This document shows, piece after piece, positions 8,742 through 14,094 of a stretch of DNA of 64,000 nt (the first letter of the stretch is position 1; every line of letters begins with the position of its first letter). Location of the stretch: assembly GCA_965248695.1 (NCBI GenBank), contig CBDFKD010000002.1, forward strand, positions 192,001 through 256,000, written 5' to 3'. The notes below the pieces were generated by a model. The model ran no database searches. It was not told where the DNA came from and was given only the letters and a program-made list of their open reading frames with translations. A program made the position numbers and the translations under genes. The stretch comes from Acidobacteriota bacterium. Lineage in GTDB: Bacteria > Acidobacteriota > UBA890 > WLXD01.

Positions 8742-8831
8742 CAGGCCCGCCTCGATCGGCCACCATCTCGACCAGGGGCATCGGGGCGAGAACGGGTGCT
8801 ACCCTGCCTCCGATCAGGAGGCCGGGCGACG

Positions 8832-10349
8832 ATGAAACAGAGCTTTTCTGCCGCGGCGGCCCAGCTCGTGCATCTGTCGGGCCCGGACCGCGGCCGTACG
8901 CGTCGCGTCTTCGGTACCACGCACCTCGTGCCAGCGAACGGTGGGCGGCTGAAGCTCGTCTACGGAGCACCACAGGTTGACGAGCGACCGATCGCCTCGC
9001 TGGTGCCCGACGACAGAGGGTGGCGCCTGGAGCTCCCCGCCGACACCGACGCGTGGGTAAACGGTACACGCGCCGGAAACCGATCGCTTGGCGCTGGCGA
9101 TCTCATCGAGATCGGTGATCCTGGCCTGCTGCTGCGCTTTCGCCCGCGCCCTCCAGGCAACGCCTACAAGAGCGTTCGCGAGGCATTCGACGACTGCATC
9201 GACTGTGTGAAGCTGGGCGGCAGCGGGATACTCGACAACCTCGGCCTGCTGCTCTGGGGGCCGATGCACGAGCTCACCACCCAAGTCCGCCCGCTGGTCC
9301 GCCTGGCGGTAGTGCTGGGGGTGGCGTCGCTGGTAGCCGGTGTCGGGGTGCTATGGAATCGCAACGCCCGGCTGGAGCGACAGCTCGACGCACAGCTGCA
9401 GCGCATCGAGGGAATGGCGGAGTTGCTGGCGGCTTCCGAGCGTGACGTCTTCACCCTCGACGACTTCACGGACGTGCGGGCGCAGCTCGACTTCCGCATC
9501 AGCGACACGCTGGCGAGGATCGAGGCACTCGAGAACCGCGCTACGGCCCGCGGTCGAGTGATCTCGGAGGCCTCGGCGGCTGTCGTATTCGTCCAGGGGG
9601 CGTACGGTTTCGTGGAGCCGCGCAGCGGGCGACTGTTGCGGTCGCCGAGCGCCGCAGGGGGCGACGTATCGGCTCCGCTCGGGATAGATGGAGACGGTTC
9701 GCCGCTCGAGCTGCGATACACCGGTACGGGCTTCGTACTCGCGGAGACGGGCCTCGTGGCCACGAATCGCCATGTAGCGCTGCCCTGGGAGTCCGAACCT
9801 GCGGCGCGGCGCCTCATCGAGCAGGGCTTCACTCCGACGATGCAACGGCTGGTCGGCTACCTTCCCGACCTCGAAGAGCCGTTCGACCTCACGGTCGTGG
9901 CCGGCCACGCGCAGGCCGACGTCGCCATCCTCCGTCGCAGTGGCACGGCCGCCAGTGGCGCCGGTCTCCGCCTTGCGGCCGATGCGCCCGAGATCGGCGA
10001 CGAGGTGCTCGTCCTCGGCTACCCAACCGGGATCCGGGCAGTCCTGGCGCGCGCCGATCCGACGTTCGTTGCCGGTCTCCTCGCCCACGGACCGGTCGGA
10101 TTCTGGGACCTCGCCGATCACCTTGCACGTGGCGGCTACGTGGCCCCGCTCGCCACCGTCGGCGGCATCGGGCAAATCACGGCGGGTGCCATCGTGTATG
10201 ACGCGGAGACAACACACGGCGGCTCAGGCGGCCCGGTGCTGGCGCTCGACGGTACTGTGGTGGCAGTCAACGCCGCCGTGCTGCCCGAGTTCAGCGGCTC
10301 CAACCTGGGCGTTCCGATTCAGCGCGTCAGAGAGCTGATAACGCCCTAG
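8832..10349 (+). CDS. Degenerate FHA + TM + coiled coil + trypsin-like serine protease
   Basis: FHA-like WVNG...LGAGDLIEIG; catalytic triad ATNRHV / DVAIL / THGGSGGP; AGGAGG RBS. Confidence 0.85.
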   Translation: MKQSFSAAAAQLVHLSGPDRGRTRRVFGTTHLVPANGGRLKLVYGAPQVDERPIASLVPDDRGWRLELPADTDAWVNGTRAGNRSLGAGDLIEIGDPGLLLRFRPRPPGNAYKSVREAFDDCIDCVKLGGSGILDNLGLLLWGPMHELTTQVRPLVRLAVVLGVASLVAGVGVLWNRNARLERQLDAQLQRIEGMAELLAASERDVFTLDDFTDVRAQLDFRISDTLARIEALENRATARGRVISEASAAVVFVQGAYGFVEPRSGRLLRSPSAAGGDVSAPLGIDGDGSPLELRYTGTGFVLAETGLVATNRHVALPWESEPAARRLIEQGFTPTMQRLVGYLPDLEEPFDLTVVAGHAQADVAILRRSGTAASGAGLRLAADAPEIGDEVLVLGYPTGIRAVLARADPTFVAGLLAHGPVGFWDLADHLARGGYVAPLATVGGIGQITAGAIVYDAETTHGGSGGPVLALDGTVVAVNAAVLPEFSGSNLGVPIQRVRELITP

Positions 10350-10993: not shown

Positions 10994-11198
10994 GGAAGCT
11001 CTCCTCGGAGAAAAGTACCCTCGGAGCGTCAGACGCGGGAGCATCCCGATTCGTCGTCGCTCGCGATCAGAATTCGTCGCCGTTCAGGTTAGCGGATCAA
11101 TGGCGGCCACGTCTCGTGCCGGGTCAGTGTCGGCCGTGGCTGGCCCTCTTTGTGTATGCTTGTAGCGCCAATCCCCTGTCGCCCTGAGGATTCCGATC

Positions 11199-12002
11199 AT
11201 GAAGCGACTGCGGCCGCTCTTGGCGGCAGCCCTGCTGGCACTCACGCCGTCGTCAACGGGACTCGGCGCACCCGGCGTCGACAGCGCAGCTGCGGCTCGC
11301 TGCACCTGTATGTCACCGAAGCGTCCCGCCTGCGAGGTGTGGTGGCAGACGGCGGCGATCTTCGTCGGACGTGTGACTCGCCTGGACACCGTGACGGAAG
11401 AAGTGGACGGCGATACCCAGATCAAGATCTTGGCGACCATCCGAGTGCAGGAACGCTGGCGTGGCGCCGAAGGACAGCGTGACGTCGTCGTGGCTACGGG
11501 AGCCGGCGGCGGCGATTGTGGCTTCCAGTTCGCCTTGAACCGCACCTATCTCGTCTACGCCAACCAGTCGTCTCGAACAGGCCGTTATGAAACAGGGATC
11601 TGCTCACGCACCTCCTTGGCTCGGGATGCCGAGATCGATTTGACGTATTTGCGTGGACTCGAAACCGCCGACAAGGTGGTCTCGCTCTACGGGATGGTCT
11701 ATCGGGAGCGTCAACAGCTGCCTCCCGGTACCGATCGCAGCCTCGACATGCGACTGGATCCAGGCGGTCCGGTCGCCGACGTGCGCATCAGCCTGGAGGT
11801 GACGGTCGGCGAGGAACAAACCTACGTCAGCGACAATGATGGCTGGTTCGAGATCGAGGGTCTGCCGGTCGGCCTGTACGAGGTGCAGCTGGACGCGCCG
11901 CAGATCGAAGACACCGCACGCTGGCGGCTTCGGATACCCATCGCCCCCGCCTGTATCTGGCGCAACCTGATCGTCGAACCGCTGCCGCTAGACGGCGGAT
12001 AA
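11199..12002 (+). CDS. Secreted TIMP/NTR-like domain + carboxypeptidase-regulatory-like domain protein
   Basis: Signal peptide, then CTC...AIFVGRV...GDCGFQF..NRTYLVYA...ICSRT; C-terminal SDNDGWFEIEGLPVGLYEV. Confidence 0.75.
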   Translation: MKRLRPLLAAALLALTPSSTGLGAPGVDSAAAARCTCMSPKRPACEVWWQTAAIFVGRVTRLDTVTEEVDGDTQIKILATIRVQERWRGAEGQRDVVVATGAGGGDCGFQFALNRTYLVYANQSSRTGRYETGICSRTSLARDAEIDLTYLRGLETADKVVSLYGMVYRERQQLPPGTDRSLDMRLDPGGPVADVRISLEVTVGEEQTYVSDNDGWFEIEGLPVGLYEVQLDAPQIEDTARWRLRIPIAPACIWRNLIVEPLPLDGG

Positions 12003-12144
12003 CGGTCCCTGCGACGGTCCCGCGAGCGGCCAGCTTAGCGCCCGGCTTGGCAACGGTCCGGACTCCGCCGACGAAGGCGCCCCTGCGAGGCGAAGCCAGC
12101 TACTGCCAGGTTTCGCCTCGCACCCCTCGGGCCATTCCGGGTAC

Positions 12145-12208
12145 CAAAAAATTGCCCGGATGATTGCCGCGACGGCCTCCCGTGGGGTCCGGAACCCTCC
12201 GTCGCGGC
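12145..12208 (-). terminator. Possible intrinsic terminator of the candidate ncRNA
   Basis: GC-rich stem 12166-12175/12199-12208 and the terminal stem, followed on the minus strand by AAUUUUUU. Confidence 0.4.
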
Positions 12209-12605
12209 GTATCTCGAGCTTCCCTCGGCTCTACGGCTCGACTTCTGACTCTTGCGAGCCTTCCGTCGACCCTGCCACCGACATCACTCTGACGAACGTG
12301 CCGGTAACTCCGTTGCTCTCCGGCTCCCCCTTGCGGGTTTGCCTTCCAGCTCCGTCAAGGTCTCCCACTCGTCCTTGCGAACGTCTGGTCCACCTCTCTC
12401 AGGCAGTCGCCTTCCACCCTTGCGGGCTTCCAGCGCCTCCCCGGGCGTCCCGGGCTCCCTCTCGAACTCCCGGTTAGCCCCGAACCCTTTCGCATCCCCT
12501 TGCGGTTCCGCTTCCAGGCTCGTCGAGCCGTCTTCCACTCAAGGTCGTTTCACGACCTCAACAGGTTCCGAATCTCCCGTTTGGCCGGGGCAATCATCCG
12601 GACCC
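12145..12605 (-). ncRNA. Candidate large structured non-coding RNA (family unknown; GGA-rich with repeated GCAA hairpins)
   Basis: 13-bp perfect inverted repeat 12156-12168/12589-12601, extending to 15 bp with a G-U pair on the minus strand only. Nested 10-bp stem 12233-12242/12522-12531. Five CGCAAG-looped hairpins, seven GGAAG motifs and a U-tract after the 3' stem. No convincing ORF. Confidence 0.6.
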
Positions 12606-12841
12606 GACCGATCAAACTATGGACGTACTGTGGCGGCAAGCGCGACGGAGAATTTTCTTCGCCGGTCGCGCAAGAAGTTCATAAGATCATTTAATCCAAT
12701 ATGTTACGGATCCTCGCCGGCAGCTGAACGCATCTGGTGAACACCGAAATCCGGAGACAGTCAGGAACCCCCAGCGTCGCGAGATGTGTCCGGGGCCGGC
12801 GGCGCGGCGCGCGGCGGTGCTTTCCGAGCGATAATCTGCGC

Positions 12842-13429
12842 ATGAGCGTCCAAGATCCAATCGCTCGGTTCCTCGAGCTTCAACGACGCGCAGAGCGCAA
12901 CGGTGAGCCGCAGCGCGCTACCGCTATGACGCTGGCGACCGCGACGTCCAACGGACGGCCCTCGGCGCGCATGGTGCTGCTGAAGGGAGCCGACGAGCTC
13001 GGCTTTGCCTTCTACACCAACTACGGCAGCCGGAAAGCCGCCGAGCTCGAGGCCAACCCGAACGCGGCGCTAGTCTTCTACTGGCCCACGCTGTCGACTC
13101 AGATACGTGTCGAGGGCCCTATAACCCGCGTCCCAGACGCGGAGGCCGACGCTTACTTTGCCTCCCGACCGCGTCAGAGTCAGCTCGGTGCGTGGGCCTC
13201 CAAGCAGAGCGCGCCGCTCGAGGGCCGTCGCGCGCTGGTCGTGCGTTATCTCACCGAGAAAGCCCGCCGGCTGGGTCAGACGATCCCGCGACCCGAGTTC
13301 TGGGGCGGCTACCTGCTACGTCCCGTACGCATCGAGTTCTGGGAATCGCGCCTCGGGCGACTGCACGATCGCACCGAGTACACGCGCTCAGGAGATGACG
13401 AGTGGCGGCGGGCGATGCTGTACCCGTAG
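12842..13429 (+). CDS. pdxH: Pyridoxamine 5'-phosphate oxidase
   Basis: AMTLAT, RPSARMVLLKG, FYTNYGSRK, YFASRPRQSQLGAWASKQS, WGGY, EFW...RLHDR, LYP. Confidence 0.96.
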   Translation: MSVQDPIARFLELQRRAERNGEPQRATAMTLATATSNGRPSARMVLLKGADELGFAFYTNYGSRKAAELEANPNAALVFYWPTLSTQIRVEGPITRVPDAEADAYFASRPRQSQLGAWASKQSAPLEGRRALVVRYLTEKARRLGQTIPRPEFWGGYLLRPVRIEFWESRLGRLHDRTEYTRSGDDEWRRAMLYP

Positions 13430-13483
13430 GTTCTCTAAGACAAGCGATCGAACTCAGGCGGTCTGTCCATGCCTCGAACGTCT

Positions 13484-13520
13484 GCTTAACGCCGCTGCGC
13501 TTCAGCTGCCGCGGCGGCGC
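13484..13520 (-). repeat. Degenerate half attC site
   Basis: GCTTAAC...GCGCTTCAGCTGC on the plus strand matches one arm of the three complete attC sites; the other arm is missing. Confidence 0.55.
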
Positions 13521-13587
13521 CTTCGCAACCACCGACCAAGACTGCGCCAATGGCGCATGGACGCGCAAGACGCGTCGGGAGCGGTAC

Positions 13588-13655
13588 GGCTAACGGTTCA
13601 GAGGCTGAGCTGCGGACGGCGAAGCCGGCCCGACAGCTCCTGGCTCGTGTTAGCC
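13588..13655 (-). mobile_element. Integron attC site 1 (68 bp)
   Basis: GGCTAAC...GTTAGCC ends, internal imperfect palindrome with AGCTG/CAGCT arms; R'' box lies just after the stop of the 13663-14094 gene. Confidence 0.85.
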
Positions 13656-13662
13656 GGCATTC

Positions 13663-14094
13663 TCAATCGTAGTACCAGACTACTTGGAGCCCGTAGTCGT
13701 TCAGATAATCCTCGATCCGTTCCTTCAGACCAGCTGTCCTCGACGCGGTCGGGTAGATGATCCCGGCACACACGTCGAGTTGATCGGCGTCCAGGTACTT
13801 CTCGATGTATCGCCAGACCTGTCTCCTGTGGGACGCTAGGTTCCTCTGACGATTACGCGGGAGTATGCGGTCCCAATCCGTTGCCTTGATCTCAACAACG
13901 GTCACCATGTTGCCCAGTTCGTCCACGAAGATGTCCATGCGGCCGCGACGCGGGCGCCCGGTGCGGGTAAGCCCGGCGAGCAACGGGATCGTGTGCTCGA
14001 TCCTAGGGTTTCCGTCGGCCGTTTGACCCCAGTCGGTCTGGACCGTCCTCTCGAATTCCCTCCCTCGCCTCAGTTGCTCCGGTTGAACGCCCAT
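13663..14094 (-). CDS. Gene cassette: small PD-(D/E)xK-like nuclease-fold protein
   Basis: GREFE...RMDIFV...VVEIKAT...QVWRY motif pattern; lies between attC sites whose ends match (GTTAGCCGG / CCGGCTAAC). Confidence 0.7.
   Translation of the reverse strand: MGVQPEQLRRGREFERTVQTDWGQTADGNPRIEHTIPLLAGLTRTGRPRRGRMDIFVDELGNMVTVVEIKATDWDRILPRNRQRNLASHRRQVWRYIEKYLDADQLDVCAGIIYPTASRTAGLKERIEDYLNDYGLQVVWYYD

Follow-up and report, generated by a model that had tools for sequence, protein, structure and literature searches.

The 64,000-nt stretch of Acidobacteriota DNA analysed here (the window; contig CBDFKD010000002.1) carries on its minus strand, at positions 12146-12603, a predicted gene for a non-coding RNA (ncRNA) of 458 nt. 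Comparative evidence indicates that this RNA and its relatives are structured, non-coding RNAs whose pairing is kept by two-sided changes. The window RNA belongs to a new RNA family that is absent from Rfam and is confined, within the reach of our searches, to a single small class of Acidobacteriota. Judged from the alignments, the ancestral form is a rod of ~180 nt, and the long form is a lineage-specific enlargement of its apical half to 351-510 nt. As to function, the leading reading is a tentative one, that of a protein-binding decoy resembling 6S or Ms1 RNA.

The minus strand folds far better than the plus strand. Its minimum free energy (MFE) is -223.9 kcal/mol (z = -7.23), and 0/100 dinucleotide shuffles fold equally well; the plus strand has an MFE of -169.9 kcal/mol and a z-score of -3.17. 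Shuffle z-scores of both strands and an Rfam search had been named as checks in a first-pass annotation of this DNA, which proposed a structured, undescribed minus-strand ncRNA made of GGAAG and GCAA-tetraloop modules. The fold z-score, the covariation and the lack of an Rfam match all support that proposal. Its description of the sequence was also reproduced. By script, the ends GUCCGGAUGAUUGCC (12603-12589) and GGCAAUCAUCCGGGC (12168-12154) form 15 pairs, one of them U.G; this U.G pair favours the minus strand, since the plus strand would have a C.A mismatch, and AAUUUUUU follows the stem at 12153-12146. There are seven copies of GGAAG and 26 GGA triplets, where ~25 had been counted by hand. 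Five hairpins are capped by GCAA (loop starts 12503, 12423, 12378, 12334 and 12255), the other two of the seven apical loops being GAGA and GUCA, and purines make up 63% of the RNA. Two further elements fared less well. The stem 12233-12242/12522-12531 is possible as a pairing, but the MFE and comparative structures prefer CGGCUC/GAGCCG at 12530-12525/12231-12226. Likewise, the hairpin 12166-12208 can pair, but both structures prefer helices P2 and P4 of the basal rod. We rejected this local hairpin: it competes with P2 and P4 and is fully complementary only in the genus and in genome G008, and the rod pairings covary by eye.

A covariance-model search with Rfam 15 (4227 families) returned no match at gathering score anywhere in the 64-kb window. 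A sensitive scan of 1 kb gave just three chance-level matches (E 1.7-6.9), and the short forms of the family had no Rfam match either, including in a 231-nt scan at E <= 10. Our literature search, which did not extend to supplementary files, turned up no account of a similar RNA in Acidobacteriota. The first-pass annotation had seen no hallmarks of RNase P RNA, transfer-messenger RNA (tmRNA) or signal recognition particle (SRP) RNA; all three are located elsewhere in the same genome, an assembly of 5.9 Mb that is 96.4% complete. It had also named conserved protein coding in an 84-aa minus-strand open reading frame (ORF) as a finding that would speak against an ncRNA. The evidence is against coding. 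The three codon positions have similar numbers of substitutions (4/2/4 and 9/7/8), and two genomes of the genus carry a 1-nt insertion that brings two stops into the frame. Because there is no codon-position bias and the frame is shifted within the genus, we judge the ORF to be non-coding; it has no Pfam match.

Our set for the class comprises 26 species genomes in two families, the window's own and a sister family, and 23 of the 26 have a member of the RNA family. A DNA search found full-length copies of 91-96% identity in 4/4 same-genus genomes and copies of ~70% identity, 351-510 nt long, in four more genomes of the window's family. In the sister family, the match was limited to both ends, which are ~180 nt apart. 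With a covariance model of four short forms (R1), three kinds of paralogue were found there: type A (~176-185 nt), type B (~183 nt) and type C (~108 nt), the last retaining the basal block without the central region. Sister-family genomes hold up to three paralogues, two of them of ~180 nt (loci L060-L088; for example, G011:C1:2569540-2569721, 2336177-2336359 and 512541-512648). R1 also detected a short form within the window's own family, in genome G005 (genus g2), and we regard it as the positional orthologue of the window RNA because it has the same CarboxypepD_reg-like downstream neighbour. A broader model (R2) matched 5/5 sister-family genomes among 151 Acidobacteriota genomes, gave one marginal 68-nt match in the 139 genomes outside the class, and found no other locus in the window's genome, where the RNA is single copy. 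A 24th genome of the class, G010, has a pattern match only; the 19-nt pattern, with one mismatch, matched 180/401 genomes of the phylum with non-zero reversed-pattern controls, and was used for G010 alone. A pattern scan of metagenome contigs yielded five complete loci, of which four are new long forms (448-469 nt) and one is identical to that of G006.

Conservation of pairing was measured separately for long and short forms. Among 13 distinct long-form sequences, 84.7% of cells are paired (78.4% when shuffled, 33-45% when partners are slid), and 50/146 pairs have changed on both sides, a count that 0/500 shuffles reach (32.3 +/- 3.2); the structure projected here is the MFE fold of the window RNA, itself one of the tested sequences, which gives a somewhat favourable bias. 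Among 26 short-form sequences, 90.1% of cells are paired (75.2% when shuffled, 31-41% when slid) and 36/56 pairs have changes on both sides, again reached by 0/500 shuffles, with the alignment fitted to the covariance model and thus biased in its favour. From its base, the short-form rod has P1 (11-15 bp, followed by a U-run), a short helix with a bulged pyrimidine, and the invariant helix P2 (CGGCC/GGCCG), which is embedded in CCCCGGCC and GGGAGGCCGUCGYGG. Above P2 lie a 3 x 3 purine loop, more helices, and the conserved strand pair YYN-GUU-GA-R... / ...G-GA-RRR. Long forms retain the whole rod; their helices 1-4 are well paired and covary, and the arms start past the junction helix. For P1 and P2 together, two pairs have changed on both sides among the long forms and 8/17 in the short forms. 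In seven type-C paralogues, two pairs of P2 itself have changed on both sides, from C-G to U-A and from G-C to C-G. In P4, 5/10 pairs have changed on both sides and 96.7% of cells are paired. Conservation is greatest in the basal stem, its internal loops and a kink-turn-like motif, and lower in the arm modules. The most conserved block of the family is GGGAGGCCGUCGCGG, which a DNA search still detects at order level (query positions 440-476).

The kink-turn-like motif lies at a conserved site. The rule used for its detection, drawn from excerpted text of PMC5061560, asks for a C helix and an NC helix separated by a 3-nt bulge and then tandem G.A and A.G pairs. It passes at the homologous site in 28/33 members: type A 3/8, G005 1/1, type B 10/10 and long forms 14/14. 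By chance, the rule passes somewhere in 388/1650 shuffles; hence, the weight of the case rests on the conserved position. The flanking helices covary (C-side 5/10, NC 4/6, and 7/10 for short-form helices 6-7). We describe the motif as kink-turn-like, the kinked three-dimensional geometry being a prediction only. Position 3n is G in most family members. The portion of PMC4382518 that we draw on links 3n = G to kink-turn folding in metal ions alone, which fits a genome without an L7Ae gene. L7Ae was considered as a partner and rejected, as no L7Ae-family protein was found in the genome.

One strand of this motif, GGUCGUG (12557-12551), has two possible partners. The distal partner, CGCGAC (12206-12201), gives the NC helix, and the adjacent partner is CGACC (12547-12543). 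Where alignment column 53 changes from U to C, both partners show the compensating change (U-A 7 and C-G 5 in each). These two covarying pairings, of 5-6 pairs each, would be compatible with a structural switch, which we regard as a lead and not as a finding.

The apical half of the long forms is made of repeated modules. Five arms of the window RNA are built alike: stem, GGAA, stem, GCAA, stem, RRAA/GGAG, stem. The GGA triplets lie mostly in symmetric, purine-rich internal loops of the GGAA/GGAA type, where stacked purine-purine pairs are more probable than open binding sites. Seven arms are present in 13/14 long forms and four in that of G008; the MFE folds have 3-6 GNRA-capped arms, with six in 9/14, and the two largest lineages keep their order. 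The G007 RNA has four to five repeats of the module, spaced 91-100 nt apart, with an exact 35-nt duplicate among them. In short type-A RNAs, the tip is one hairpin of the module type. Duplication of an apical hairpin is probably the simplest history of the expansion, since the modules are paralogous, G007 has its repeats, one variant has lost an arm tip, and the type-A tip hairpin is alike. An ancestor of ~180 nt, an intermediate of 351 nt and expanded forms of 448-510 nt coexist in related genomes. Therefore, growth of a large RNA by module duplication is directly readable.

The RNA gene appears to have its own σ70-type promoter and to end at P1 and the U-run. Both signals were read by eye from alignments, with the consensus promoter hexamers as a guide. 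The sister-family promoters are the more regular: all 25 genes have GTTGACA, a spacing of 16-17 nt, and TAnnnT ~7 nt before P1. Long forms have the same promoter spacing with weaker hexamers. An A-rich run, also seen by eye, occupies the same place upstream in five same-genus long forms, in G008 and in most of the 25 sister-family genes. A simple promoter and terminator scan of 11900-12950 found no sites. The terminator scan was silent because the P1 stem is long-range; from the silence of the promoter scan, it follows that the hexamer match in the window is weak.

In the window, the CarboxypepD_reg-like gene lies downstream and is convergent with the RNA gene, and pdxH lies upstream and is divergent from it. 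pdxH is the divergent upstream neighbour in 4/5 genera with long forms. Type A is flanked by the genes for citrate synthase and an HtrA-like protease, which lie on its strand, and type B adjoins an SNF-family transporter gene and is divergent from its neighbour. The family thus probably consists of independent genes, as its members have their own promoter and U-run, and neighbours that differ among paralogues and families.

The sequence is present in RNA libraries. Logan contigs from 4/4 metatranscriptome runs, in three studies with sponge, sediment and marine sediment labels, match 12156-12596 at 85-99+% identity, with word depths of hundreds to thousands in three runs, the fourth having 2-9. 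No contig of the four runs covers 11000-12110 or 12616-14000, a gap that carries no weight, since the runs were chosen with the window RNA stretch and contigs may leave holes. Some contigs stop matching near the 5ʹ end. Contigs of runs X9 and X10 cease to match at 12592 and 12594, 7-11 nt inside P1, and continue with 28 and 255 unlike letters, respectively; a contig of run X16 ends its match at 12596 with ~30 unaligned letters beyond. A processed 5ʹ end, template switching, chimeric assembly or strain difference are all possible explanations of these breaks. One contig of run X7 (depth 6.8) joins 12515 back to 12363, a distance of 153 nt, with 15 other letters between; this joint may come from a relative with another arm arrangement or be an assembly artefact.

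Canonical 6S RNA (SsrS, RF00013) is not detectable in this class. RF00013 matches 95/151 Acidobacteriota genomes, nearly always once each, and 0/6 in the window's family and 0/5 in the sister family. At E <= 1 there is no match in the window's whole genome or in the type A, B and C loci, and the 231-nt short-form scan at E <= 10 gave none; another Acidobacteriota genome, as a positive control, gave 101.7 bits. In 4/5 loci examined, canonical 6S lies between zapA and rny. These two genes are adjacent in the window's genome, with a 196-nt spacer (G000:C2:5091840-5092035; L199:1245-1440, minus strand) that is unstructured (z = +1.61), is 73-88% identical within the genus and has no Rfam match. 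The corresponding gap is ~67 nt in G005 and ~127 nt in G006, too short to leave room for a 6S gene. From these sequences, canonical 6S appears to have been lost from its ancestral zapA-rny site in the window's genome. Separately, ZapA (PF05164) was not found in G011 and G012, the two most complete sister-family genomes, and is present in the 3/3 window-family genomes searched.

What, then, is the function of the window RNA? The leading reading, by analogy, is a protein-binding decoy of the 6S/Ms1 kind, and we put its probability at about 0.35. It is suggested by a class without canonical 6S and by the empty zapA-6S-rny site. The RNA would be transcribed from its own promoter, ended by P1 and the U-run, and accumulate as a stable RNA that acts through a protein bound to the conserved rod. 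Base-pairing with mRNAs is unlikely as the mode of action, given that conservation falls on helices and internal loops. The partner would be RNA polymerase, which is the weakest step, making the family the functional 6S substitute of the class, a part played by Ms1 in Actinobacteria. 6S itself binds the σ70 holoenzyme and is a template for product RNA. The primary contact would not be made by the extra arms, whose role would be to stiffen or bundle the apical end. The short forms (176-185 nt, with paired ends and a rod) fit 6S in length and shape; the 458-nt, seven-armed form in the window does not. Such a role would also suit a family present in 23/26 genomes of the class, the two ~180-nt paralogues per sister-family genome and the two covarying pairings of one strand.

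Several observations weigh against a 6S/Ms1-like role. The consensus fold, itself a predicted structure, has no large central bubble, the hallmark of 6S and Ms1 that in 6S mimics an open promoter; its largest central loop (~6-7 x 3-5 nt) sits beside a covarying helix of 2-3 bp and reads better as a kink-turn. In 6S it is the centre that matters most, whereas here the basal stem block is the most conserved part and all that type C keeps of the rod. The window RNA lies off the zapA-rny site, and synteny with these genes is not kept. R1, run with filters off against 30 canonical acidobacterial 6S loci, gave no significant co-located match, only three weak ones (9.0, 6.4 and 5.0 bits; E 0.6-6). 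Other Acidobacteriota families that lack an RF00013 match have no member of the RNA family (0/4, 0/3, 0/10, 0/3 and 0/9). Missing RF00013 matches are common in the phylum, and hence do not by themselves point to this RNA. The miss of the simple promoter scan counts on the same side, as does the nature of the metatranscriptome contigs, which give no strand, ends or level and may reflect contaminating DNA.

A different account is that the RNA is a subunit or scaffold of a ribonucleoprotein (RNP) with a protein other than RNA polymerase, possibly class-specific, bound at the basal block and/or the kink-turn-like motif; paralogues A, B and C and the long form would then show different apical parts on one platform. 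We consider this possible if somewhat unlikely. The basal block is common to all four forms, including type C, which lacks the centre, and the conserved bases lie in pairs or in internal loops and not in open ones. The kink-turn-like motif passes the rule in most members, and kink-turns act as both protein-binding sites and architectural elements, according to the sections of PMC5061560 and PMC4316175 that we cite. However, no candidate partner gene adjoins the RNA, whose neighbours are not conserved, and L7Ae, Ro/TROVE and CsrA were not found in the genome. Furthermore, 3n = G predicts folding in metal ions only (PMC4382518, in the same portion as above), so that no protein would be needed. 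A folding unit of this kind might also be purely architectural, with GNRA loops docking into helices or tandem purine-purine loops to give a compact or multimeric particle independent of protein. Some large orphan bacterial RNAs are reported to form such particles. The recurring GGAA/GGAA-type loops and the 3-6 GNRA-capped arms would suit such a particle, as would the gain and loss of arms by duplication and deletion with no change in module design, and the rod could be folded back on itself at the kink-turn-like motif. Against this, the forms that are ancestral and most widely distributed have one apical hairpin, so many arms cannot be a requirement for what the family does; loop-receptor covariation was neither looked for nor seen. 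We regard an architectural role as improbable.

The first-pass annotation had compared the RNA with CsrB/RsmY, RNAs that sequester CsrA/RsmA through many GGA motifs. The 26 GGA triplets in 458 nt and the 63% purine content recommend the comparison, but it does not hold up: CsrA (PF02599) has 0 matches in the 96.4%-complete genome while control genomes are positive, GGA occurs in 0/7 apical loops, there is no Rfam Csr/Rsm match, and the short ancestral forms are poor in GGA. A sponge of this type is thus a very remote prospect, and a role as a scaffold or multivalent binder, which the annotation had also suggested, is possible. We give just as little credence to a cis-acting leader, a 3ʹ untranslated region, a mobile-element remnant or a small protein gene, even with type A lying on the same strand between its two neighbours and with the 84-aa ORF in the window RNA. 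Every copy has its own candidate promoter and a U-run; the window RNA is convergent with its downstream gene and divergent from pdxH, and type B is divergent; and the RNA is single copy in its genome, with an ORF that is frameshifted within the genus and free of codon-position bias. A role as a Y RNA was rejected on the grounds that Ro/TROVE (PF05731) has 0 matches in the genome.

Taken to its full extent, the 6S/Ms1-like reading would mean that the class dropped canonical 6S and uses an unrelated, kink-turn-containing rod RNA, which in one family grew by serial duplication of tetraloop/tandem-G.A modules into a seven-armed particle of ~0.5 kb, possibly with a switch between the two covarying pairings. 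We hold this whole scenario to be unlikely. If true, it would let the evolution of a large structured RNA from a small regulatory one be seen, which is rarely possible.

The predicted features of the RNA and its promoter region are listed in Table 1.

Table 1. Features of the window RNA and its upstream region; positions are those of the window.
Feature	Position	Strand	Basis
A-rich GAAGAAAA upstream of -35 hexamer, candidate UP element	12653..12660	-	position checked; function inferred
Candidate σ70-type promoter: TTGCCG, 17 nt, TTTGAT, 7 nt to first base of P1	12611..12639	-	layout kept in 9/9 long forms
ncRNA, ends as predicted	12146..12603	-	MFE z-score; 91-96% homologues in 4/4 same-genus genomes; covariation; RNA-library contigs 12156-12596
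P1 5ʹ strand, closing stem	12589..12603	-	P1 and P2: 21 pairs, 98.9% of cells paired
P2 5ʹ strand CGGCC, inside near-invariant CCCCGGCC	12583..12587	-	invariant among long forms
P4 5ʹ strand UUCGGAACCU; last bases are the C-stem of the kink-turn-like motif	12563..12572	-	pairs with 12197-12188
Kink-turn-like motif, bulged strand: GUU bulge, G-A, G (3b), NC-helix strand GUCGUG	12551..12562	-	rule scan
Alternative local hairpin GGUCG-UGAAA-CGACC, rival of NC helix	12543..12557	-	93.8% of cells paired; 2/5 pairs changed on both sides
Expanded apical domain: helix CGGCUC/GAGCCG around seven hairpin arms	12226..12530	-	MFE fold; simple helix tip instead in ~180-nt forms
Arm 1: GCAA loop, GGAA/GAAA internal loop	12481..12522	-	tip deleted in metagenome variant L221
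Arm 2: GAGA loop	12443..12480	-	MFE fold; long-form helices 10-11
Arm 3: GCAA loop, symmetric GGAA/GGAA internal loop	12401..12442	-	MFE fold
Arm 4: GCAA loop, best covariation support of the arms	12357..12396	-	7/13 pairs changed on both sides, 93-94% of cells paired
Arm 5: GCAA loop, GGAA/GGAG internal loop	12311..12354	-	holds 26-nt copy of arm-1 module, 73% identity
Arm 6: GUCA loop, long stem	12274..12308	-	7/14 pairs changed on both sides, but 69.5% of cells paired
Arm 7: GCAA loop, GGAA/AGAA internal loop	12235..12272	-	MFE fold; long-form helices 23-24
Kink-turn-like motif, other strand: NC-helix strand CGCGAC, G (3n), G-A	12198..12206	-	rule scan; NC helix 4/6 pairs changed on both sides
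P4 3ʹ strand GGGUUCCGGA	12188..12197	-	pairing and covariation
GGA, then P2 3ʹ strand GGCCG, in invariant GGGAGGCCGUCGCGG	12173..12180	-	invariant alignment columns
P1 3ʹ strand	12154..12168	-	pairing and long-form alignment
AAUUUUUU tail, with P1 the presumed intrinsic terminator	12146..12153	-	U-run after P1 in 35/35 members examined

Two observations concern other genes of these genomes. A gene for a Trypsin_2-domain protease lies at 8796-10349 of the window (plus strand), ~2 kb from the RNA, and in the sister family an HtrA-like Trypsin_2/PDZ protease gene lies directly downstream of type A; the presence of Trypsin_2 proteases near both RNAs may be a remnant of shared synteny. There are also two small-SRP RNA matches above the Rfam cut-off, at G000:C2:2283459-2283558 and G000:C2:2816376-2816463 (L020 and L021; 69.9 and 52.8 bits). 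The ~45 nt upstream and the 5ʹ halves of these two matches are nearly identical and the 3ʹ halves differ, a pattern that suggests partial duplication of the SRP RNA gene.

The lineage that carries the family, known here mainly from sponge- and sediment-labelled samples, is without a detectable copy of the near-universal 6S RNA, and the family is a concrete candidate for a replacement RNA polymerase regulator, as Ms1 was in Actinobacteria. New bacterial RNA classes that are both conserved and several hundred nt in length are rare, and almost none has a traceable origin. Whatever the partner proves to be, the basal block, the kink-turn-like motif and the helix with two potential partners are a defined target for pull-down and structure work. 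If the partner is not RNA polymerase, the family would be a new RNA class outright.

How does the family compare with known RNAs? With 6S it shares ancestral irregular rods of ~180 nt with paired ends, stand-alone genes, a class-wide distribution and, in some genomes, two paralogues of ~180 nt. Unlike 6S, it has a conserved basal block, a kink-turn-like motif and other neighbours, its consensus has no large central bubble, covariance models give no match either way, and the window copy has 458 nt and seven arms. Ms1 is an instructive precedent: according to the passages of PMC9130861 that we cite, it replaces 6S in Actinobacteria, is ~300 nt long compared with ~180 nt, and cannot be found by sequence. 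Like Ms1, the family is lineage-specific, reaches lengths greater than 6S, is found in the niche where 6S is missing and does not resemble it in sequence. In contrast to the fold described here, Ms1 has a central bubble, and it binds the RNA polymerase core; it also comes from a different phylum, and homology, judged by Rfam scans alone, was negative.

The resemblance to CsrB, RsmY and RsmZ lies in the many GGA motifs and the repetitive hairpins, but the GGAs here are in internal loops, not hairpin loops, and there is no CsrA gene. Bacterial Y RNAs have an end stem that carries a conserved element, a variable apical part and several paralogues. The family matches them in a stem formed by the ends with a conserved element, a variable apex and several paralogues, and differs from them in that the genome has no TROVE/Rsr gene and there is no Rfam Y-RNA match. 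The large RNAs OLE, GOLLD, ROOL, HEARO and raiA are similar in their length of several hundred nt, their many GNRA-capped arms and their narrow lineages. We take these families to be in Rfam, where the window RNA has no match; moreover, unlike them, it appears to derive from a ~180-nt small RNA by module duplication. In kind, the family most resembles stand-alone, rod-shaped housekeeping small RNAs, and its kink-turn-like core and its growth to a seven-armed RNA of ~0.5 kb are new.

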